From an uncultured Acidobacteriota bacterium (GTDB lineage: Bacteria > Acidobacteriota > Vicinamibacteria > Vicinamibacterales > CAVVIG01), in the NCBI GenBank assembly GCA_902825985.1, contig CADEDC010000012.1:29602-93601 (forward strand): DNA of 64,000 nucleotides, given 5' to 3'. The notes below the pieces were generated by a model that saw nothing but the letters and a program-made list of their open reading frames with translations, searched no databases and had not been told where the DNA came from. Made by a program: the position numbers and the translations under genes. The number at the start of each line of letters is the position of its first letter. The stretch's first letter is position 1. Shown here one piece after another: positions 3,301-63,399 of this stretch.

Positions 3301-3581
3301 AGGCCGGCGACGCCGAACGGTAGGGCCAGCGCCAGCCCGGCGACGACGCCTTCGAGGACGGCGTAGACCCGCAGGGCCTGCCGCGGCAGCAGCCGTGCGG
3401 CGGCACGGCCGCCCGCGAACGCCCCCAATGCCAGCCCGCCCATGAACGCCGCCAGCACCGTGCTCGACGCGGCCAGTCCGTGTCCCAGCGACAGGGTCAG
3501 CAACCGGGTCCAGCTCACCTCGTAGACGAGGCCGGCCAGGCCGGAGATTGCGTAGGCCACCAGGAACAGCCAGGTCAGCAT
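363..3581 (-). CDS. fused polytopic membrane domain / spermidine-synthase-like AdoMet fold / TPR-repeat protein
   Basis: 1072-aa ORF. The N-terminal half is many hydrophobic helices (MLTWLFLVAYAISGLAGLVYEVSWTRLL...). The centre has an AdoMet-fold block, VAIIGLGSGVTLASAL...YDVIVSEPSNPW. The C-terminus has Ala/Leu-rich TPR-like repeats. Confidence 0.85.
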   Translation of the reverse strand: MLTWLFLVAYAISGLAGLVYEVSWTRLLTLSLGHGLAASSTVLAAFMGGLALGAFAGGRAAARLLPRQALRVYAVLEGVVAGLALALPFGVAGLTPVFTATYGDGTGGVGFGLVRLAACALLLLPPAMALGATFPMAVRILTHDAVHPGVVAGRLYAANTLGAGVGAVLAGFVLLPAFGVTTTSWIGVAASVAALVLALGSQRPVAVADRSVAAAPPAAATAASRADGRRNGTARVRRGIAARTPRGGGAPAPAAEQVWLSAFVLTLTGVVTFTTEIAWTRVFALVIGPSTYAFAATVAVFIGGLAVGATAGSMLAARTRQRAMALGVVLGLAAIAIAAATTAAGTWLPRRVMADFAAAHGGSLLFTHAALAALLIAPAAIGIGAAFPIALELAGGGEAPSRRIGGIYALNTVASVVGSLLTGFVMIPLVGLERTLQLATLLVIVASAGALAWSGGTRLRQALAAIPIVVSAAIVVLGAGWDRELLASGSYKYASDVPAGVDVETALRAGTLIYYKDGATGTVSVKRLTGQLALAIDGKVDASTAGDMLTQKLLAHLPLLLHDDPQQVAIIGLGSGVTLASALVHPVRGVDALEISHEVAEASRLFTAGAASPLDDPRTRLVVADGRTHLALSTRVYDVIVSEPSNPWMVGVAALFTREFFTAARARLSAGGIICQWVNTYDISTADLQSVVATFASVFPHGTLWLVGEGDLLLLGSALPFAPRLQTMAEAWRRPGVAEDLLPQGVVEPFGVLSTYLGGDDTIARFRGDAAVQTDDRMGLEFTAPRALRTSTRRDNVERLQSAAASGERPAAVVQAWAAAGGPQLAHRAAMLQRAGAFAAAYQTADEAVTQAPSHVEALTTLVESAVALGRPADAQVRLTQVIAQHPEFTAPRLALSRLQASTGDLAAAAQLATDALARDPEQPAALEQLASVFADAGDAARLDGLAAALARHPSRPGSHYYLAALQFMRGDLDAAEAAAGRALRLDARYARAQNLVGAIRATRGDTDGARQAFTAALHLDPRDPTTYQNLGLLEMNAGRHDTASRLFAEALSLDPTSAAAREGLARTAGGR

Positions 3582-5614: not shown

Positions 5615-8596
5615 GTGAAACATACGTACCGGGCGTCGCTCTGTCTCATCTCGGTCGCACTCATCTGTCTCTCGGTCGTGCCCTCGCGGGCCACCGATCT
5701 GCGCAGCGTGCTGACCGGCTACACAGTGACGTCCTGGAGCCAGAAGGACGGACTGCCGGCCGGCATCGTCTACGCGCTCGCACAGGACAACGAAGGCTAC
5801 ATCTGGGTCGCGACCGACGACGGGCCGTACCGTTTCGACGGAGTCCGGTTCAGTTCGTGGGAGCAGCTCAGCGATCAAGCGCTGCCATCCAAGCTCGTCC
5901 GCACGCTCCGGGTCGACAATGACGGAGCGCTGTGGGTGGGTTTCGCCGGCAAGGGTGGCGTCAGCCGGCTGCGTGACGGTCGAGCCGAGAACTTCGGTCA
6001 GGCACAGGGGTTGCCGAACTCGCCGGTCTCCACGCTGGTGGTGGATGCGCACGGCCTGTTGTGGGCCGGCACCGGCGTCGGCCTCTTCTTCTACCGCGAC
6101 GGCCGCTGGCAGAAGTACCCGTCCGACCGCGGCCTGCCGGACGAGTCGGTGTTCACCGCCACGTTTCTCGATCAGCGCAACCAGATGTACGTGGGGAACG
6201 CCGTCGGCTTCTACCGCTACCGCGAGGTGGACCAGCGCTTCGAGCGGGTCGAGACGACCACCGACATCGCGCGGGCCATCTCCGAAGATCCGCTCGGCAA
6301 CCTTCTCGTCACCGACGAGGTCGCCGGCTTCCGGCGCGTCGGTTCGCGCCAGCCGCCAATCGATCAGACCGAGCGCGGGCGCGGCCGACAGCTGCTGCGC
6401 GACCGGCGTGGCAACCTGTGGGTCGGCACCTCGGGTCAGGGACTCTGGCGCGTCCGCTTCGACGAGCAGGGGCGCATCCAGCTCACTGAACGGGCGACCG
6501 CCCTCACCGGCCTGCTCGCCGACGGTGTCTTCGCCCTGCTCGAGGATCGCGAAGGCAACATCTGGTCGGGCACGATTGAAGGCCTGAACCGGCTGACGCC
6601 ACACAAAGTGGCGCAGGTCACCGAGATTGGCCTGGTGGCCGGCGTCGAGTCGAGTGCCGATGGCTCGATCTGGGTCGGGACCGTCGACGAACTGCTGCGC
6701 TTCGGAAGTTCCTCGCTGCGGCGGGCCGACGAACGCGTCTCGATGAACGGCTCTCGGCTGCGCGCCCTCCACATCGACGCGCACGGCACCACGTGGGTGG
6801 CGACGACGCAGGGCTTGTCGCGGCTCGTGAAAGGGCAGCTCGTGCCGGTGAGCGTCACGACGGCCGACGAGATGCCCAGGCAGATCGATACCATCACGTC
6901 CGACGGGAACGGCGGCGTCTGGCTGTTCGACACGGCGCGCGGGCTGGTGCAGTACGCCGGCGGTCGCTTCAGCAACGTTGCGCTGCCGGTGTCGTTCGCG
7001 AAGACCCGGGTGTCGGCCACCTACACCGACAGCGGCGGGCGGGCGTGGTTCGCCTTCTCGGATGGCCAGGTGGCGTGGAGCGACGGCGAAGGGGTCCGCA
7101 TGCTCGGGCCGGCAGACGGCGTCGATGGCGGCGTCTACCAGGCGATCTACGAGGACTCGCTGCACCAGATCTGGCTCGGCGGTACGGCCGGACTCACCCG
7201 CTTTGCCGACGGTAAGTTCGTCACCATCCGCCAGGGCAACGGCTTCCCGGTCAACAACCTCACCGCCATCGTCGAGGACGGTGCCGACTACCTGTGGATG
7301 GGATCGGGCGTCGGCATCCTCCAGATCCGTCGCGACGAGTGCGACCGCGCCGCCGCCGACCCGTCGTATCAGGTGCACTACCGGCTCTACGATCGCGCCG
7401 ACGGACTCGCCGGGTTGCCGTTCGTCTACAGCACGAACCGGCGCGCCATCCGCGCCCGGGACGGTGGACTCTGGTTCGTCACGGCGCGCGGCCTGACGGT
7501 CATCGACCCGGACGATCTGCGGCCCGGCGACGACGCCTTGCCGGTCCGCATCGAAGGGATCATGGCGGACGGTGTCCGCCTGCGTCCCGAACAGGGCCTC
7601 CGGCTGCCGGCGCGCACGTCACGCGTCGAGATCGAATTCACGGCGCTCAACATGACGTCGCCGCTCAAGCAGCAGTTCCGCTACCGGCTCGAAGGGTTCG
7701 ATGCGGACTGGATCGACGCGGGCACGCGGCGCCAGGCGTTCTACACGAACCTGCCGCCGCGCCAGTTCCGCTTCCGGGTCATGAGCACGAGCGTCGCCGG
7801 CTCGTGGACCGACGACGGTGACGCGTGGGATTTCGGCATCGAACCGATGTTCTATCAGACGCGCTGGTTCATGATCCTGTCGGTCGGCTTCGTGGTGGCC
7901 GGCGTCGGCGGGGCGTGGCGTCTGCACGTCGGACAGGTACGGCGACAGTTCGCCCTGCTGCTCGGCGAGCGGGCGCGCCTGAGCCGCGAAATCCACGACA
8001 CGCTGCTGCAAAGCCTGGTCGGCATCGCACTGCAGTTCGACGCCATGGCCAACGACCCCGAGGCGACGTCCGACGCGCAGAAGGATCGCTTCGTGCGCAT
8101 GCGCAAGCAGGTCGAGGAGTACATCCGCGAAGCCCGCCAGTCGATCTGGGATCTGCGATCGCCCAAGCTCAAGGTACAGGACCTGGTCACCGCACTGCGT
8201 GAGGCGGGCGAACGGGCGACCACCCCGGCCGCGATTGCGTTCAATCTGACGGTGAACGGCACGCCGCGACGGCTGCCGGCCAAGACCGAAGAGCAGGTAC
8301 TGCGCATCGGGCAGGAGGCCGTGGTGAATGCAGTCCGCCACTCGCGGGCCAGCCTCGTGTCGGTGGAACTCGATTTCGACAGTACGCGGCTGGTCCTGCG
8401 CGTCCATGACGATGGACAGGGCTTCGAGCCGTCACGGGTGTCGTCCAGCAATGGCGGCGGCCACTACGGATTGACGAGCATGCGCGAGCGCGCCGAACAG
8501 ACAGGCGGCAGCCTGCGGGTCGACAGCGCGCCCGGACGCGGGACACACATCGAAGCCACGGTGCCGACCGCACCGGCCGGCGGCAAGGGCGTATGA
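5615..8596 (+). CDS. sensor histidine kinase with periplasmic two-component-regulator beta-propeller and Y_Y_Y-like region (HisKA_3 type)
   Basis: 993 aa. The first ~700 aa repeat GLP....V.....D..G..W.GT propeller units. A TM helix FMILSVGFVVAGVGGAW follows. The H-box is LSREIHDTLLQSL, and the HATPase boxes are EAVVNAVRHS, DDGQGF and GHYGLTSMRERA. Confidence 0.9.
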   Translation: MKHTYRASLCLISVALICLSVVPSRATDLRSVLTGYTVTSWSQKDGLPAGIVYALAQDNEGYIWVATDDGPYRFDGVRFSSWEQLSDQALPSKLVRTLRVDNDGALWVGFAGKGGVSRLRDGRAENFGQAQGLPNSPVSTLVVDAHGLLWAGTGVGLFFYRDGRWQKYPSDRGLPDESVFTATFLDQRNQMYVGNAVGFYRYREVDQRFERVETTTDIARAISEDPLGNLLVTDEVAGFRRVGSRQPPIDQTERGRGRQLLRDRRGNLWVGTSGQGLWRVRFDEQGRIQLTERATALTGLLADGVFALLEDREGNIWSGTIEGLNRLTPHKVAQVTEIGLVAGVESSADGSIWVGTVDELLRFGSSSLRRADERVSMNGSRLRALHIDAHGTTWVATTQGLSRLVKGQLVPVSVTTADEMPRQIDTITSDGNGGVWLFDTARGLVQYAGGRFSNVALPVSFAKTRVSATYTDSGGRAWFAFSDGQVAWSDGEGVRMLGPADGVDGGVYQAIYEDSLHQIWLGGTAGLTRFADGKFVTIRQGNGFPVNNLTAIVEDGADYLWMGSGVGILQIRRDECDRAAADPSYQVHYRLYDRADGLAGLPFVYSTNRRAIRARDGGLWFVTARGLTVIDPDDLRPGDDALPVRIEGIMADGVRLRPEQGLRLPARTSRVEIEFTALNMTSPLKQQFRYRLEGFDADWIDAGTRRQAFYTNLPPRQFRFRVMSTSVAGSWTDDGDAWDFGIEPMFYQTRWFMILSVGFVVAGVGGAWRLHVGQVRRQFALLLGERARLSREIHDTLLQSLVGIALQFDAMANDPEATSDAQKDRFVRMRKQVEEYIREARQSIWDLRSPKLKVQDLVTALREAGERATTPAAIAFNLTVNGTPRRLPAKTEEQVLRIGQEAVVNAVRHSRASLVSVELDFDSTRLVLRVHDDGQGFEPSRVSSSNGGGHYGLTSMRERAEQTGGSLRVDSAPGRGTHIEATVPTAPAGGKGV

Positions 8597-9222
8597 CTAC
8601 GGAGCCTCAGATTCGGGTGCTGTGCGTCGACGATCACCGGATCGTCCGCGAAGGCATCGCGCTCATCATCAGCCGGCAGCCCGACATGGAAGTCGTCGGG
8701 TCGGCCGCATCCGGCGAGGAGGCGGTCGAACTGTTTCGCACGTGCCGGCCGGACGTGACCCTGATGGACCTGCAGCTCGGCACGATGGGCGGTGTCGCTG
8801 CCATCCGGGCAATCAAGGCGCACGACAGCGACGCCCGCATCGTCGTGCTCACGATGTACAGCGGCGACGAAGACATCTATCGCGCGCTGCAGGCCGGCGC
8901 CGTCACCTATCTGCTGAAGGACACGCTGTCCGACGATCTCATCCGTGTGGTGCGCGAGGTGCACGACGGCAAGACGCCGCTGGGCCCCGACGTGGAGGCG
9001 CGGCTCGCCGAACGGGCGGCCCGTCCGCATCTGACGCCGCGCGAGGTGCAGGTGGTGGAACTGATCGCCCAAGGCATGCGCAACAAGGAGATCGCCGCCG
9101 CGCTTGGCATCAGCGAGGAGACCGCCCAGGTGCACGTGAAGAACATTCTCGCCAAGCTGAAGGTGAAGGATCGCACGGCGGTGGTCAGCGTGGCACTGCG
9201 CCGCGGCATCATTCATATGTGA
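8593..9222 (+). CDS. NarL/LuxR-family response regulator
   Basis: REC domain (VLCVDDH, DVTLMDLQL) plus a LuxR HTH (LTPREVQVVELIAQGMRNKEIAAALGISEETAQVHVKNILAKL). The start overlaps the kinase stop by 4 nt. Confidence 0.95.
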   Translation: MTTEPQIRVLCVDDHRIVREGIALIISRQPDMEVVGSAASGEEAVELFRTCRPDVTLMDLQLGTMGGVAAIRAIKAHDSDARIVVLTMYSGDEDIYRALQAGAVTYLLKDTLSDDLIRVVREVHDGKTPLGPDVEARLAERAARPHLTPREVQVVELIAQGMRNKEIAAALGISEETAQVHVKNILAKLKVKDRTAVVSVALRRGIIHM

Positions 9223-9277
9223 CCGGCCCGCCGCTTACCTGCTTTCGGGTACCACTCCGTGTACCCGAATCCGGTTA

Positions 9278-9306
9278 TTGACGCGTCGATGCCGGAACTT
9301 CACAAT
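9278..9306 (+). promoter_or_regulatory. candidate sigma-70-type promoter, unit 1 (TTGACG-17 nt-CACAAT)
   Basis: TTGACG at 9278-9283, a 17-nt spacer, and CACAAT at 9301-9306. The same hexamers and spacing recur 257 nt downstream with a different spacer sequence. Confidence 0.45.
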
Positions 9307-9312
9307 GATTGC

Positions 9313-9412
9313 ACTCGCTCCTTCGACAACTCCCGTCAAGCGAGAGCCTGTTCCGGCGGACCGTCGCTCGTGCCTCGGCTTCGGTGCGTCGGACAGGCGC
9401 CTTCTTCCCGAC
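9313..9412 (+). ncRNA. candidate small RNA, unit 1 (3' end uncertain)
   Basis: The 40-nt block 9314-9353 is identical to 9571-9610 and starts at the predicted +1. It folds as a CTCGCT/AGCGAG stem with a 19-nt C/U-rich loop. No ORF here has coding-like composition. Confidence 0.35.
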
Positions 9413-9534
9413 CACCCGCATCCGCAATCGCACGGATTCATCGCAAGCCGCGCGACCAGACAATTATGTCTGACGCCCGGTGCGCGCGCGAAGGCCAGCA
9501 GGCGTCGGCCCGCCCGTGCAACTGATTCCGGTTA

Positions 9535-9563
9535 TTGACGGTCGGTTCCGAACGTCGCACAAT
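9535..9563 (+). promoter_or_regulatory. candidate sigma-70-type promoter, unit 2 (TTGACG-17 nt-CACAAT)
   Basis: TTGACG at 9535-9540, a 17-nt spacer, and CACAAT at 9558-9563. It is preceded by the same tccggtta as unit 1. Confidence 0.45.
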
Positions 9564-9569
9564 GCGTGC

Positions 9570-9680
9570 GCTCGCTCCTTCGACAACTCCCGTCAAGCGA
9601 GAGCCTGTTCGGTGAGCCATCGTCCGTGCCTCGGCGGTGGTTCACTGGGCAGGCACCTTCAGTCAGGCCTGCCCGGCTCC
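9570..9680 (+). ncRNA. candidate small RNA, unit 2, with a GC-rich 3' hairpin
   Basis: Identical 40-nt block at 9571-9610 and the shared CGTGCCTCGGC block. A terminal hairpin GGGCAGGC (9647-9654) / GCCTGCCC (9667-9674) has a 12-nt loop. Confidence 0.35.
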
Positions 9681-9813
9681 GTGCTCGAACTCCGCGTCAC
9701 GCGATGTTGAATCCTGGCACCAGGCGCCTGGCCGGCGTGCTGCGGCAGCGGTCCTGGCTGGACGACGGCCAGCCAGCGCGATGCGCTGACCGGCCGGTCA
9801 TTGGGCATCCGTG

Positions 9814-9869
9814 GTCAGATGTTCACCGTCAGATGTTCGCCGTCAGATATTCGCCGTCAGGGGTTCGTG
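9814..9869. repeat. 4 x 14-nt tandem repeat spanning the stop codon of the molybdopterin-subunit gene
   Basis: The copies are gtcagatgttcacc, gtcagatgttcgcc, gtcagatattcgcc and gtcaggggttcgtg, read directly from the sequence. The gene's stop codon (reverse complement TGA) is at 9843-9845, inside copy 3. Confidence 0.9.
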
Positions 9870-12359
9870 CATGCGGCGCCCATGCTCGAGCGACGTCAGG
9901 ATGATGTCTGCGGTGACGGGTGCGCGGCGGAACACGTCGGGACCGACGGCGTCGGCGATGGCGTTCATCACCGCGGTGAAGCCGGCGCCGACCGGTGCCT
10001 CGCCAATCCCTCGTGCGCCGACCGGTGTCTCCGGATCCGGGACGTCGAGGGCCGCCCACCCCATCGACACCGGGGCGTCGAGAATCGTCGGCGGCTTGGT
10101 CTGATAGAACCGCCGTGCCAGTGGCACGCCGTAGTGCTGGTCGTACACCCAGTGCTGACCGAGCGCGTGGCCGATGCCGAGCATGATGCCGCCGAGCGAC
10201 TGTCCCCGCAGATTGCGCGGGTGGATGACCGTGCCGCAATCGGCGACGCACAGAAAATCGACCAGGTCGTAGTGCCCGGTCTCGACGTCGACCTCGACCT
10301 CGGCGAAGCCCGCGACATACGACTTGGACGCGCCGTCGCGGCCGTAGGCATCGCGCGCCACCCCCATCAATCCCTGGCCGACCAGCGCGGCTGCCGACGC
10401 TTTGGTCGTCGGGTTGATGTTCTCCGGCAGCTCGTGTCCGTCGAACGCGCCACCGAGCTCGATCGCCTTCTGGGCGGCCTGAGCCAGGGTCAGACTGCGG
10501 CTTCCGCTGAATACCCGCTCGCCCTCGACCTGATAGCTGTCGGCCGCGCCGCCGAGCACGCTGGCGGCAACCTGCTGCAGCTTGCGCTTCGCGTCCATGC
10601 CGGCGGCGTGCGCGGCGCGCGTCATCGCGTGCGTCGTCTGGCTGCCGCCCTGGTTGCAGGTATAGGGCAACGACTTCGCGGAGTTGCCCCAGGTGATGAC
10701 CACCTTGTCCCACGCGATTCCGACAATCTCCGCCGCGACGCGGTGGACATCGAACACCGACTCGGTGCCGAGGTTGCCGATGCCGGACTGGACGTACATC
10801 CTGCCGTCCGGCTTGATGACGAACAGTCCGTCGAACCCCATCGAGCCGGCCGAGTAGGCACTGACGCCGACGCCGATGCCGCGAACCTTGGTCCCCTGCC
10901 GCTTGCCGCTGCGCAGCTTGCGCTCGTCCCAGTTGAACAGGCCGGCGCCCTTGTCGAGCGCGTCCTTCAGGAATGCACTGGTCGCGTGCGGGCGCTTGCC
11001 GTCACGTCCGACGGCGCCGAACTCGGCCTTCCCCTCCGGGGCGTTGATCCGATGGAGCGCCACCTGGTCGACGCCCAGTTGCTTGGCGGCCTTGGCCAGG
11101 ATCGGCTCCATCACCCCGTTCCCCTGCATCCCGCCGGGGGCGCGCTGGGCGCCGCGCGGCGGAGTGTTGGTGAGCACGGAGACCGATCGCCAGCGCATCG
11201 CCGGCGGCTGATACGACAACGAGATGTGGTCGCCGGCCGACCGTCCATCGCCGACGATGTCATAGGGGCCGTTGTCGACGATCGCAAGGCCGTCGATCGC
11301 GGTGATCCGGCCGTCCTTCGTGAACCCGACCTTGATGCGCGCATGCAGGGCCGGACGGGCGCGGCCGATGTATTGCTCCTCGTCGCGCGTCACCCGCATC
11401 AGCACCGGCACACCGCCGAGTTTCTTCGACAGCAGCGCCGGGACGACGGTGAAGACCGACGACGACCCCTTGCTGCCAAAGCCGCCGCCGGTGTATTCGC
11501 TGATGATCACGACGTTCGCCGCGTCGACGCCGACCCAGCGTGCCACGGCGCCGATCGTCCGCATCGTGCTCTGGGTCGAGCAGTGCATGTAGAGTTTGCC
11601 GTTCTGCCAGTACGCCATGGCCGACCGGGTCTCGAGCGGCTGGTGACTGGTGTTGGGCAGCACGAAGGTTTCGTCGAGCACCAGATCGGCGGACCGGAAT
11701 CCGGCCTCGACGTCGCCCACCGTCCACTCCTCGGTCGCCCGGCCGAGCGGCAGCTGACCGTCGGCGGCGGCGGCGAAGTCGTCGGCCGTCCACTTGAGCT
11801 CCTCGACCTGGGGATTGGCTGGTGCCGGCGTCGGCGCCGGAGCCTGATTGCCGCGCCCCGCGGTCGACGCAGCCGGCGCCATCGGCCGCACCCAGACGTT
11901 GCCTTCACGGCGGGCGTTCGGACCGTTGGGCCGCAGGCTCTCGATCGGATCGACCACGAACGGCAGTGGCTCGAAGTCGATGACGATCTTCTCGATGGCT
12001 TCGGCGGCCGTCAGTTCGTCGACGGCCGCCACGGCGAGGATCGGCTCGCCTTCGTACAGCGGCTCGTTGGTGAGCCCGCGCTCGCTCAGCAGGCTGGCGA
12101 TGATGCCTTCGCCGAGGTTGGCGCCGGCGACGACGGCCGGCAGATCGGCCTCCGTGAGGATGGCCTTCACGCCCGGCATCGCCTCGGCGGCGCTCGTGTC
12201 GATGCGGCGCACGCGCGCATGTGGCATCGGGCTGAGCAGCAGCTTCGCGAACAGCATGCCGTCGGCGCGGAAGTCCTCTGCGTACTTGGCCTGCCCAGTG
12301 ACCTTCGCCACCAGGTCTGGCGTGCTGTAGTTCTGTCCGACCAACTTTGGATTCGCCAC
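9843..12359 (-). CDS. xanthine dehydrogenase / aldehyde oxidase family molybdopterin-binding subunit
   Basis: 838 aa. The N-terminus MANPKLVGQNYSTPDLVAKVTGQAKYAEDFRADGMLFAKLLLSPMPHARVRRID and later blocks (GGGFGSK, GIGEAPVGA) are characteristic of this family. There is no Tat or Sec signal. Confidence 0.9.
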   Translation of the reverse strand: MANPKLVGQNYSTPDLVAKVTGQAKYAEDFRADGMLFAKLLLSPMPHARVRRIDTSAAEAMPGVKAILTEADLPAVVAGANLGEGIIASLLSERGLTNEPLYEGEPILAVAAVDELTAAEAIEKIVIDFEPLPFVVDPIESLRPNGPNARREGNVWVRPMAPAASTAGRGNQAPAPTPAPANPQVEELKWTADDFAAAADGQLPLGRATEEWTVGDVEAGFRSADLVLDETFVLPNTSHQPLETRSAMAYWQNGKLYMHCSTQSTMRTIGAVARWVGVDAANVVIISEYTGGGFGSKGSSSVFTVVPALLSKKLGGVPVLMRVTRDEEQYIGRARPALHARIKVGFTKDGRITAIDGLAIVDNGPYDIVGDGRSAGDHISLSYQPPAMRWRSVSVLTNTPPRGAQRAPGGMQGNGVMEPILAKAAKQLGVDQVALHRINAPEGKAEFGAVGRDGKRPHATSAFLKDALDKGAGLFNWDERKLRSGKRQGTKVRGIGVGVSAYSAGSMGFDGLFVIKPDGRMYVQSGIGNLGTESVFDVHRVAAEIVGIAWDKVVITWGNSAKSLPYTCNQGGSQTTHAMTRAAHAAGMDAKRKLQQVAASVLGGAADSYQVEGERVFSGSRSLTLAQAAQKAIELGGAFDGHELPENINPTTKASAAALVGQGLMGVARDAYGRDGASKSYVAGFAEVEVDVETGHYDLVDFLCVADCGTVIHPRNLRGQSLGGIMLGIGHALGQHWVYDQHYGVPLARRFYQTKPPTILDAPVSMGWAALDVPDPETPVGARGIGEAPVGAGFTAVMNAIADAVGPDVFRRAPVTADIILTSLEHGRRMHEPLTANI

Positions 12360-45411: not shown

Positions 45412-47082
45412 TTGGCGGCACGCCGTCCATCGGGTAAGGTCCTGCTCAGCCCTTCGATGCTCGTCCCACCTGCCCCCGACGCGCCGCGTGACCTCGCCGA
45501 ACTCCGCGAGAGCGAAGAACGGCTCCGCCTCGCGTTCGCCGGCGCTCAGGAAGGCGTCTGGGACTGGAATCTCGAGACCGGCGCGGTGATCTATTCCGCC
45601 CGGTGGCGCGAGATGCTCGGCTATGACGCCGACGACGTCGAACCGCACGTCCGCGCCTGGGAACGGCTGATTCACCCCGACGACCGCGAGCCGGCCCTCG
45701 CGGCGACCAGCCGCCTCGCGCACGGCGGCGACGCCTATCGGGTGGAGTGCCGGCTGCGGCACAAGGACGGTCACTGGGTCCACGTCGTCTCGCGTGGCTA
45801 TCCGGTCCGCGACCCGGCCGATGGCCGCGTCGTCCGCATCGTCGGCACGCATCTCGACCTCAGCGAGCGCAAGCAGGCGGAGCTGGCGCTGCGTGAGAGT
45901 GAAGAGCGCCTCACGCTGGCGTTCGCCGGCGCGCAGGAGGGCGTGTGGGACTGGAATCTCGAATCCGGCGCCGTCGTCTACTCGAAGCGGTGGAAGGAGA
46001 TGCTCGGCTATGACGACGCCGAGGTCGAACCGCATGTGAGCGCCTGGGAACGGCTGCTGCATCCCGACGATCGCGCCAAGGCCGACGCGGTCAACCGGCT
46101 GGTCATGGAGGGCCATCCGTCGTATGAAGCCGAGTTCCGCCTGCGGCACAAGGACGGCCACTACGTGCATGTCCTGTCGCGCGGCCTGCCGATTCGACGC
46201 ATCCCCGAGGGACCGGTCGTCCGCATCGTCGGCACCCACTTCGACCTCACCGAACGCAAGCGCGCCGAGGATGCGCTCCGGCAGGCGCAGGAGGAGCTCG
46301 AACGCCGCGTCGACGAGCGGACCGCCGAACTGGCCCAGGTCAACACGTCGCTGAGGCAGGAGATGCGGCGGCGCGAGCGGGCGGAACGCGCCCGCACCGA
46401 CCTGCTCGGACGGCTGGTGTTCGCGCAGGAAGACGAACGGCGCCGCATTGCCCGCGAGATGCACGATCAGTTCGGCGAACATCTCACTGCCCTGGCCCGC
46501 TGCGTCGACCGACTGACGGCGCTGGCCGATGCCGACCCGCGCCTCGCCTCCGAGGTCAGGACCCTGGACCATGTCGCCCAGCGTCTCGACCGCGATGTCG
46601 AGCATCTCGTCTGGGAACTGCGCCCGACGGCGCTCGACGACCTCGGGCTGCGCGCCGCGCTCGCCAACTACGCGAAGGACTGGTCGGCGCGCGTCGGCAT
46701 CCCGGTGAAGATGCACACGTCGGGGCTGCTCGACGAGCGGCTGTCGTCCGACGTCGAAACCACGCTCTACCGCATCGCCCAGGAGGCGCTGACCAACATC
46801 GCCAAGCACTCGCGGGCGACGCACGTCGAGGTCATTCTCGAACGACGCGGGCACGCGGTGGTGCTGATCATCGAAGACAACGGCATCGGTTTCGACGCGG
46901 ACGGCGGCAGCGAGCCGCCGGACGATGGATCGCGCAGCTTCGGCCTGCTCGGCATGCAGGAGCGGGCCGCCCTCATCGGCGCCACCTTGACGATCGAATC
47001 GACGGTCGGGCAGGGCACGACGGTCCTCCTCAGGATGACCGCCGACATCCAGACGAGCCCGCAGGGCCTGGCGCATGGCTAG
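45412..47082 (+). CDS. cytoplasmic tandem-PAS sensor histidine kinase (HisKA_3 type)
   Basis: It has two ~70% identical PAS modules (LRESEERL.LAFAGAQEGVWDWNLE.GAV.YS...). The H-box is IAREMHDQFGEHLTAL. The HATPase boxes are EALTNIAKHS, DNGIGF and FGLLGMQERA. The track start is a TTG, so the true start is uncertain. Confidence 0.9.
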   Translation: MAARRPSGKVLLSPSMLVPPAPDAPRDLAELRESEERLRLAFAGAQEGVWDWNLETGAVIYSARWREMLGYDADDVEPHVRAWERLIHPDDREPALAATSRLAHGGDAYRVECRLRHKDGHWVHVVSRGYPVRDPADGRVVRIVGTHLDLSERKQAELALRESEERLTLAFAGAQEGVWDWNLESGAVVYSKRWKEMLGYDDAEVEPHVSAWERLLHPDDRAKADAVNRLVMEGHPSYEAEFRLRHKDGHYVHVLSRGLPIRRIPEGPVVRIVGTHFDLTERKRAEDALRQAQEELERRVDERTAELAQVNTSLRQEMRRRERAERARTDLLGRLVFAQEDERRRIAREMHDQFGEHLTALARCVDRLTALADADPRLASEVRTLDHVAQRLDRDVEHLVWELRPTALDDLGLRAALANYAKDWSARVGIPVKMHTSGLLDERLSSDVETTLYRIAQEALTNIAKHSRATHVEVILERRGHAVVLIIEDNGIGFDADGGSEPPDDGSRSFGLLGMQERAALIGATLTIESTVGQGTTVLLRMTADIQTSPQGLAHG

Positions 47083-63250: not shown

Positions 63251-63305
63251 CGCTGGCGCTCCGATGTCATGGCGCTCGGAAGGATGCAGCTCATCGTAGT
63301 CTCCC

Positions 63306-63371
63306 GGGTCTCTCTCGGGTCTCTCTCGGGTCGTTCTTGGGTCGTTCTTGGGTCGCTCGCGGGTCGCGCTC
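63306..63371. repeat. 6 x 11-nt tandem repeat (GGGTC + 6 variable nt), organised as three doublets
   Basis: The copies are gggtctctctc x2, gggtcgttctt x2, then gggtcgctcgc and gggtcgcgctc, read directly from the sequence. It lies in the divergent intergenic region. Confidence 0.9.
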
Positions 63372-63399
63372 GGCTGACCGATCCGTTTGACCTCGTCCA

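Follow-up and report, generated by a model that had tools for sequence, protein, structure and literature searches.

What is encoded by two nearly identical units that lie one behind the other in a gap between convergent genes? The question arises from a 64,000-nucleotide (nt) stretch of the genome of an uncultured Acidobacteriota bacterium (contig CADEDC010000012.1), hereafter the window, in which both units occupy a single intergenic gap. An earlier inspection of the letters, made without database searches (the sequence-only reading), had taken them for paralogous small RNAs (sRNAs). The analysis reported here leads us to present the units as a candidate sRNA family, previously undescribed and narrow in its distribution, that has a leader-type relative. 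With a probability of roughly 0.55, each unit would be a separate gene for a trans-acting, structured sRNA, linked to a regulator gene and having a sister form that acts as a leader. The promoters, the core, a covarying hairpin and the plus-strand orientation all stand on the side of paralogous sRNAs; several parts of the earlier proposal needed revision, among them its simplicity, since the element of a sister lineage is the leader of a protein gene.

What the sequence-only reading had described in the letters was confirmed throughout. The two units form direct repeats with a period of 257 nt and have the same layout. Their identity is 85% between 9257-9283 and 9514-9540, 94% between 9301-9353 and 9558-9610, and 71% between 9354-9404 and 9610-9660. 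The 40-nt block that had been reported as identical at 9314-9353 and 9571-9610 is exactly that, and it occurs only twice in the 64 kb, against an expectation of zero from shuffled sequence. The sequence CGTGCCTCGGC is common to both window units. The predicted parts of each unit, including a first and a second stem-loop (SL1 and SL2), are the following:

9278..9306, plus strand: unit 1 promoter, with -35 TTGACG at 9278-9283, a 17-nt spacer and -10 CACAAT at 9301-9306 (consensus scan)
9313, plus strand: unit 1 predicted transcription start, an A, the seventh nt after the -10
9314..9344, plus strand: unit 1 SL1, stem CUCGCU/AGCGAG with the 19-nt loop CCUUCGACAACUCCCGUCA (fold)
9346..9398, plus strand: unit 1 SL2, a long hairpin with apical loop GUGCCUC at 9370-9376, followed by CCUUCUUCCC; 21 pairs, 97.6% paired; presumed 3' hairpin or terminator
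9535..9563, plus strand: unit 2 promoter, TTGACG, a 17-nt spacer and CACAAT (consensus scan)
9570, plus strand: unit 2 predicted transcription start, a G, placed as in unit 1
9571..9601, plus strand: unit 2 SL1, identical to that of unit 1 (fold)
9603..9654, plus strand: unit 2 SL2, a long hairpin with loop GUGCCUC (fold and covariation)
9647..9674, plus strand: unit 2 extra or alternative hairpin, GGGCAGGC...GCCUGCCC, with 8-bp pairing of 9647-9654 to 9667-9674; its 5' arm is common with the base of SL2

Homologs were collected from three sources: a scan of genomes for the exact 19-nt loop, covering one representative of each of 185,579 species, the DNA around orthologs of the neighbouring regulator, and one pattern scan of metagenomes. 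The genome scan returned one true homolog (L002) and one further match, L001, which was rejected as a homolog because it has no stem and matches the loop by chance. The metagenome scan returned three loci, one of them duplicating L002, and regulator orthologs were numerous in metagenomes. Ten distinct units were thus available, namely the two of the window and those of L002, L003, L010, L011, L013, L020, L021 and L022. Those outside the window come from metagenomes and metagenome-assembled genomes (MAGs), and the nearest named relative of the regulator belongs to a Vicinamibacterales MAG. Seven of the units (both of the window, L002, L003, L013, L020 and L022) are referred to below as free-standing.

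The promoter is the first feature for which the comparison is informative. Within 9100-9950 the two TTGACG-17-CACAAT pairs are the sole promoter-like sites, while 0.1 would be expected from shuffles. All ten units read TTGAC followed by G or C, then exactly 17 nt, NANAAT, exactly 7 nt and CUCGCU. The fraction of the majority base is 0.96 in the -35, 0.50 in the spacer, 0.85 in the -10, 0.62 in the 7-nt stretch and 0.99 in the 33-nt core. The claim that hexamers and spacing are conserved and the spacer is not therefore stands across the ten units; for the window alone it was too strong, as its two 17-nt spacers, once shifted by 1 nt, agree at some 10 of 16 positions and so are not unrelated. 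Because a purine (A in 8 units, G in 2) immediately precedes the core in all ten, this position is the likely start point, and transcription from this sigma-70-type promoter would begin at 9313 and 9570. Each unit has, then, a predicted promoter of its own, as expected of an sRNA gene, judged from consensus and positional conservation.

Downstream of the promoter the dominant structure is SL2, a hairpin of about 21 bp directly after SL1. When each unit was folded, the values were -44.4 kcal/mol (z = -2.57) for unit 1 and -55.9 kcal/mol (z = -4.61) for unit 2, and the minus strands gave z = +0.2 and -2.3, respectively. The arms of SL2 are only 71% identical between the window copies, yet remain fully paired in both. 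The free-standing homologs fold consistently as SL1 plus SL2, and RNAalifold returned SL1 plus a 21-pair SL2 for the ten-unit alignment. In that alignment, 98.3% of the cells pair, and sliding the 3' partners by 1-3 columns lowers this to 34-43%. Eight pairs carry changes on both sides, and none of 500 shuffles reached the observed paired fraction or covariation score. With the seven free-standing units alone, 97.5% of the cells pair and there are nine double-change pairs. The sequence-only reading had noticed the second shared block, CGUGCCUCGGC, which is indeed present, and had missed that it is the apical loop of SL2. Similarly, the 8-bp hairpin that it placed at 9647-9674 of unit 2 can pair as described, although its 5' half belongs to the 3' arm of SL2, which is the main hairpin. 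This extra downstream hairpin is not found in all units. At the same position L022, whose SL2 is the most similar to that of unit 2, reads GGGCGGG...CCCGCCC, which amounts to a compensatory change, and in both units the downstream hairpin competes with the base of SL2.

The G-U pairs of SL2 also tell the strand. On the plus strand 203 of 208 SL2 cells pair, compared with 172 of 208 on the minus strand, and 31 of the pairs are G-U. Given this asymmetry, SL2 is a structure at the RNA level of the plus strand, and neither a DNA palindrome nor a minus-strand RNA. It bears directly on the idea that the units are inverted repeats acting as DNA, a dispersed repeat of the REP/MITE type, or a minus-strand sponge with GGA loops, of the Rsm/Csr type, controlled by a GacA-like regulator. 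There are reasons to consider it: SL1 and the sites upstream of the promoters are palindromes in DNA, the minus strand of SL1 reads GACGGGAG...AAGGAG, and the neighbouring regulator is in the same broad NarL/FixJ family as GacA. However, the 31 G-U pairs of SL2 would become A-C mismatches on the other strand and are meaningless in duplex DNA, the promoter faces the plus strand, and further copies are absent from the rest of the window, 173 kb of related loci, viral contigs and plasmids. We therefore find this group of explanations hardly credible. The sponge was rejected also in its own right, as the plus-strand loops are C/U-rich without any GGA and the strand is fixed by promoter direction and G-U asymmetry.

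A dispersed repeat was one outcome that, according to the sequence-only reading, would have undone its proposal, and this is not what was found. A covariance model built from the ten units and run over the window plus 20 loci (173 kb) retrieved only the known units, at 96-114 bits, with the next best hit at 16 bits. A scan of viral contigs gave no copies, and a distant blastn search of the 620-nt gap against plasmids gave no match. Since the model finds only known units and the viral contigs lack copies, the element is not a dispersed repeat. The REP/MITE candidate was accordingly rejected: the window copies are confined to this gap, and the genome, metagenome and viral scans gave regulator-linked loci only.

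SL1 shows a different kind of conservation. The 33-nt core is identical in 7 of the 10 units, and ACAACUCCCGUCAAGCGAGAG is invariant across the cores of all ten. L010, L011 and L021 carry two or three substitutions in the 5' part of the loop, where CUCUUAC and CUGUUUC replace the CUCCUUC kept by the rest; within the predicted loop, ACAACUCCCGUCAAG is invariant. Compensatory change, which the sequence-only reading had hoped to see in the stem of SL1, appears as the double changes of SL2 instead; the SL1 stem never varies, being neither disrupted nor compensated, and for this reason covariation says nothing for or against it.

The free-standing units contain no conserved open reading frame (ORF). 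The ORFs of the gap had been judged non-coding-like in composition, and two of them gave no Pfam match. The free-standing units keep a GUG at the position of the SL2 loop, and the first five or so codons from it resemble MPRLR. A small ORF starting at this GUG was nevertheless rejected for the seven free-standing units, because its length varies from 21 to 176 codons, it is unconserved after about 10 residues, and a 1-nt insertion shifts its frame in both L003 and L020. The same remnant of a coding start could mean that the units are decaying relics of the promoter, leader and first codons of a lost gene and have no function, all the more as a homologous element begins a real gene in a sister lineage. 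Decay is difficult to reconcile with what the free-standing units have retained, which is an identical 33-nt core, the hexamers, the spacings and nine compensatory SL2 pairs, while the flanks have become unalignable. Moreover, the two frameshifted units still pair, as do the two SL2 arms of the window after diverging to 71%. The relic interpretation is, in our opinion, very improbable.

The real gene in question is found in L010, L011 and L021. In these three units the SL2 loop reads AUGCCUC, while the other seven have GUGCCUC. The AUG is in frame with a long ORF, which encodes 694 amino acids (aa) in both L010 and L021; that of L011 is still open where the contig ends. The 694-aa protein starts with MPRLRFAGRTVFSLLTFVLAA, a typical signal peptide, after which come a weak cytochrome-c-like match containing CATCH, and TPR repeats. 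Gene callers had extended this ORF upstream over the whole unit. In that extension, L010 and L021 differ, by eye, at about 8 bases that produce 7 amino-acid differences, and since almost all the changes are non-synonymous the extension is non-coding. From the sequence, the element in these three loci is best read as a promoter, a 57-nt leader and the start of the gene for a secreted TPR protein. The start codon of the L010 type lies inside the loop of a 21-bp hairpin followed by GUUUUCA, the best U-rich tail among the units. A tblastn search of the window with the 694-aa protein gave only a weak TPR-repeat match far from the gap, and thus no ortholog or remnant. Since the TPR gene of the sister lineage begins with this very promoter, SL1 and SL2, the mRNA leader and the free-standing RNA would have a common origin.

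These relatives raise the possibility that the element is a cis-acting regulated leader, riboswitch-like or protein-binding, with SL1 as the sensor and SL2 as a terminator and/or a sequesterer of the start codon; the window copies would then be orphan sensors that keep binding the factor and serve as decoys, or would control read-through in the antisense direction. Several observations agree with it. The AUG in the SL2 loop opens a signal-peptide protein behind a non-coding leader in L010, L011 and L021, the tail of the leader-type units is the richest in U, the invariance of the SL1 stem and loop is the pattern expected of a specific binding site, and the L010 leader folded together with its coding sequence has competing folds (minimum free energy structure at a frequency of 0.033). 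A same-strand gene 3' of the promoter is, however, present only in those three loci. In the window both units are followed by the convergent gene, and in five other loci too no same-strand gene comes after the element, which leaves the object that the window copies would regulate unexplained. Also, 31 nt is very little for a hairpin that senses a ligand, a conserved alternative (antiterminator) pairing was not found among the units, no riboswitch or leader model of Rfam matched, and a strict scan called no terminator. On balance, we consider the cis-acting leader possible but unlikely. A related proposal is that SL1 is a compact, sequence-specific protein or ligand sensor gating SL2, in its capacity as terminator and enclosure of the start codon; it would be a new class of cis-regulatory RNA that was kept and duplicated after gene loss as a free-standing decoy or signal-responsive RNA. 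To this we give distinctly little credence. Inspection by eye shows a resemblance between the SL1 loop and the 5' arm of SL2, and competition of the loop for the 3' arm is conceivable, the complementarity being weak and interrupted.

In the window the units lie among the following genes:

5615..8596, plus strand: sensor histidine kinase, 993 aa, with Reg_prop, Y_Y_Y, HisKA_3 and HATPase_c (Pfam)
8593..9222, plus strand: NarL/LuxR-type response regulator, Response_reg plus GerE (Pfam, orthologs, tree)
9223-9842: intergenic gap of 620 nt between convergent genes, containing both units
9843-12359, minus strand: gene for a molybdenum (Mo)-cofactor-binding subunit of the xanthine dehydrogenase family

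All ten units lie directly 3' of the same kinase/NarL-type regulator pair, the kinase gene being 5' of the regulator in every element-bearing locus long enough to show it. Measured from the regulator stop codon, the core of the free-standing loci begins at 91-170 nt, except for unit 2 of the window, where the distance is 348 nt. The intergenic DNA that flanks the free-standing units is unalignable, and the next gene is variable. The window, L002 and L013 have the convergent Mo enzyme there; in L003 and L022 its place is taken by a hypothetical protein of 344 aa, unrelated to it, and L010, L011 and L021 have the TPR gene, on the same strand as the element. The gene order of L002 is that of the window, with regulator, one unit and convergent Mo-enzyme gene. 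The sequence-only reading was correct that the flanking genes converge on the gap, which it took as a typical setting for an sRNA, although the relevant context turned out to be the linkage to the two-component system upstream.

Given this arrangement, the units could start antisense transcripts that run into the convergent gene (in the window, the Mo enzyme) and regulate it by antisense pairing or by collision. Wherever a downstream gene can be seen in a free-standing locus, it is convergent, and as SL2 lacks a canonical U tract, read-through is plausible. Against such a role, the convergent gene comes from two unrelated families while the element and its distance from the regulator are conserved, unit 1 of the window would need to read through unit 2, and SL2 is very stable (-30 kcal/mol or stronger). 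Terminators poor in U exist in high-G+C bacteria. Antisense action is consequently improbable and, like the relic reading and the group of DNA-level, repeat and minus-strand readings, less likely than the cis-acting leader.

How the predicted promoters might be controlled is suggested by palindrome-like sites next to the -35, of which the window has two:

9262..9277, plus strand: unit 1 palindrome-like site TACCCGAATCCGGTTA, abutting the -35; candidate operator
9519..9534, plus strand: unit 2 degenerate palindrome-like site CAACTGATTCCGGTTA, abutting the -35

The unit 1 site has two mismatches to the perfect palindrome TAACCGGATCCGGTTA found at the same position in L020. That of unit 2 has four mismatches to the palindrome, with a right half, TCCGGTTA, equal to that of unit 1 and occurring nowhere else in the window. 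Allowing up to three mismatches, the window contains one such site (unit 1) when 0.04 are expected, and in 158 kb of loci the sites are found only upstream of units. A 16-bp palindrome-like site at the -35 groups both window units with L020, L022, L010 and L021, and L020 and L022 carry a second one further upstream. In L002, L003 and L013 their place is taken by a pair of GTTCAN4TGAC motifs with a spacing of exactly 30 nt, and the proximal motif lies 64 nt ahead of the core. In sequence, all these sites look like operators for dimeric regulators. Another palindrome-like sequence, TTACCTGCTTTCGGGTA, is present at 9236-9252 of the window, between the regulator stop codon and unit 1 and at about the position of the distal site of L020 and L022. 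A function as distal operator is possible, as is that of a small hairpin at which the regulator transcript ends. On the protein side, the predicted DNA-recognition region GISEETAQVHVKNILAKLKVKDRT (window 9010-9222) is nearly identical across regulators that are 75-94% identical overall, including two paralogs on one 780-kb contig (P0027 and P0070). With such near-identity, one may ask how so many paralogous systems prevent their outputs from mixing.

Taken in order along the molecule, the trans-acting sRNA reading proposes the following. Each unit would be the gene for a structured RNA of about 85-95 nt on the plus strand. Its 5' end would be the almost invariant 33-nt stem-loop SL1, with a 19-nt loop displaying C-rich single-stranded motifs, and the G+C-rich 3' hairpin SL2 would probably stop transcription or protect the 3' end, placing the predicted 3' ends after SL2 at about 9400-9410 and 9655-9680. 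The most likely mode of action would be base-pairing in trans, between the C-rich loop and G-rich, Shine-Dalgarno-like sites, through the motifs predicted to be exposed (CUCCC in SL1, CCUC in the SL2 loop, and CUCCUUC in most units). Transcription would probably be controlled by a dimeric DNA-binding protein at the sites beside the -35, possibly the neighbouring regulator. The element is inherited with one kinase/NarL-type regulator pair and is confined to one clade of uncultured Acidobacteriota.

A number of results weigh against this proposal. The strict scan called no canonical U-tract terminator, despite a stable and covarying hairpin, and the tails after SL2 in the window are only CCUUCUUCC and CUUCAGUC; across the units, tails range from GUUUUA and GUUUUC to these two. 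A search for targets of the SL1 loop with RNAduplex, on both strands of the 64-kb window, gave none above background, the best non-self duplex (-28.6 kcal/mol) lying inside a coding region and shuffled queries reaching -26 to -33 kcal/mol. SL1 by itself is no more stable than shuffles (z = -1.22), and its stem, being invariant, offers no covariation; the 6-bp stem with a 19-nt loop that the sequence-only reading drew is thus predicted by folding without going beyond chance. Of the two loop motifs that it called anti-Shine-Dalgarno-like, only the CUCCC half is invariant, the CUCCUUC part being unconserved in L010, L011 and L021. An SL1 recognized by a protein or ligand would account for the invariance of both stem and loop no less well than a base-pairing seed, and the leader-type relatives show that the element can work in cis. 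Finally, the upstream sites differ between the two groups of loci while the recognition helix of the regulator is identical everywhere, even in loci without the element, which makes the assignment of the sites to the neighbouring regulator only a hypothesis and weakens it.

The family is narrow. No copy was detected, by mismatch scan or covariance model, in L005, L008, L017, L018, L023, L025 or L028, whose regulators are 75-85% identical and belong to other branches, and it is from these related loci without the element that its narrowness follows. In the regulator tree, the six loci with free-standing units form one clade, L010 and L021 are its sister group, and the next branch (L023, L025 and L028) is without the element. 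With leader-type loci sister to the free-standing clade and outgroups that have neither, parsimony fits both the conversion of a leader into an sRNA and the capture of an RNA gene by a protein gene. Two copies occur only in the window; elsewhere there is one element per locus. The SL2 of unit 1 is about 91% identical to that of L020, and unit 2 shares with L022 a 1-nt deletion, the arm UUCGGUGA and the extra downstream hairpin. These sequence similarities suggest that the duplication predates the split of the window, L020 and L022 lineages, and that copies were then lost differentially. The L020 contig ends before any second copy could be visible.

Other observations concern the loci rather than the element. 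L002 (VFZL01000017.1) was deposited as an Acidimicrobiia MAG, with a regulator 90% and a Mo enzyme 81% identical to those of the window; given that the nearest named relative of the window regulator is from Vicinamibacterales, either the contig was mis-binned or the label is wrong. In L028 (about 3375-3400) and in L029, which has the same sequence, an outgroup without the element has another C/U-rich stretch, CCUCUCCCCUCCUCCC, some 60 nt behind the regulator stop codon; this may represent a C-rich RNA of analogous kind, unrelated to the element, at the same place in the genome. In several loci that lack the element, the space after the regulator is filled by long, low-complexity repeats of short period, for example runs of GGGGCTNGG (L005 4630-4730 and 5080-5190, L008 4660-4840, L025 1875-1980, L027 1390-1490); each has a C-rich counterpart further downstream, and the two together are imperfect inverted repeats. 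In the window, 9814-9860 is a tandem array of 3.4 copies of a 14-nt unit, GTCAGATGTTCGCC, lying across the stop codon of the Mo-enzyme gene. The product there ends in ...HEPLTANI*, and L002 and L013 apparently encode the same C-terminus with about one copy of the 14 nt, so the array looks like a recent tandem multiplication of the last 14 nt of the gene. Elsewhere in the window, an 11-nt unit, CTCTCGGGTCG, is repeated 6.6 times at 63301-63373, and a 387-nt unit 1.9 times, at 76% identity, at 45508-46261, which may be a duplicated domain in a coding region.

Comparison with known families gave no match. As the sequence-only reading had suggested, the region was scanned against the covariance models of Rfam 15, and no match was found at E <= 1 with permissive filters in 9000-10000, nor at the gathering score in the whole window. 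In the scan of the region at E <= 1, this includes the models of Acido-1, Acido-Lenti-1, AbcR/ar15 and RsaE as well as the riboswitch and leader models. Because these models do not match, the units are not members of the AbcR, RsaE/RoxS or Acido motif families, and the comparisons that follow are of likeness only.

AbcR sRNAs have loops that are anti-Shine-Dalgarno in sequence. By analogy, the layout of the window most resembles tandem sibling sRNAs such as AbcR1 and AbcR2 of the alpha-proteobacteria, which are likewise two homologous tandem sRNAs with their own promoters and exposed C/U-rich loop motifs (PMC3712013, PMC4152367). Two further articles place AbcR beside the transcription factor LsrB/VtlR, by which it is controlled (PMC8844928, PMC7486931). 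The window units differ in that they have no sequence or structure match to AbcR in Rfam and belong to another phylum, and in that their neighbour is a NarL-type response regulator with a kinase and not a LysR protein. We know of no protein-coding, leader-type relative of AbcR. RsaE/RoxS of the Firmicutes uses several unpaired C-rich motifs to pair with G-rich ribosome-binding sites and is tied to ResDE/SrrAB (PMC4409812, PMC6158497). The family described here is similar in having CUCCC, CCUC and, in most units, CUCCUUC in predicted loops; it is different in lacking homology (Rfam negative), in its longer conserved motif, a 15-nt stretch within a stem-loop whose stem is also invariant, and in its place beside a regulator, as RoxS is not encoded next to its own.

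The relation between leader and free-standing RNA has parallels in rnTrpL of Sinorhizobium and Rli51 of Listeria, in which one RNA element serves a gene as its 5' leader and also works in trans as a short RNA (PMC6614838, PMC11394854). Here too the leader form (L010, L011 and L021) is homologous to the free-standing form (the window and five loci). Whereas in rnTrpL and Rli51 one locus gives both forms, in this family they are found in different lineages, the free-standing form having lost or never had the gene and having been duplicated; there is also no leader peptide, and termination and action in trans are here only inferred. Acido-1 and Acido-Lenti-1 (RF01686 and RF01687), from a screen of 2010, are also candidate non-coding RNAs of Acidobacteria found by comparative genomics (PMC2864571), from which the units are set apart by the absence of a match to either model at E <= 1. 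According to one review, four sRNA families are annotated in Acidobacteriota (PMC9029176).

Acidobacteriota are a dominant and mostly uncultured phylum of soils, in which regulatory RNAs are almost unknown. For a candidate picked out by eye, the comparative support is unusually clean, combining promoter geometry, an invariant core and a covarying, strand-asymmetric hairpin. The element gives a concrete handle on the output of one member of a hugely expanded kinase/regulator family. Furthermore, in closely related lineages one and the same element is found in two roles, providing a gene with its leader and start codon in one case and standing alone, duplicated, as a candidate RNA gene in the other, which makes it a usable case for studying the conversion, in either direction, between an sRNA gene and the 5' end of an mRNA.

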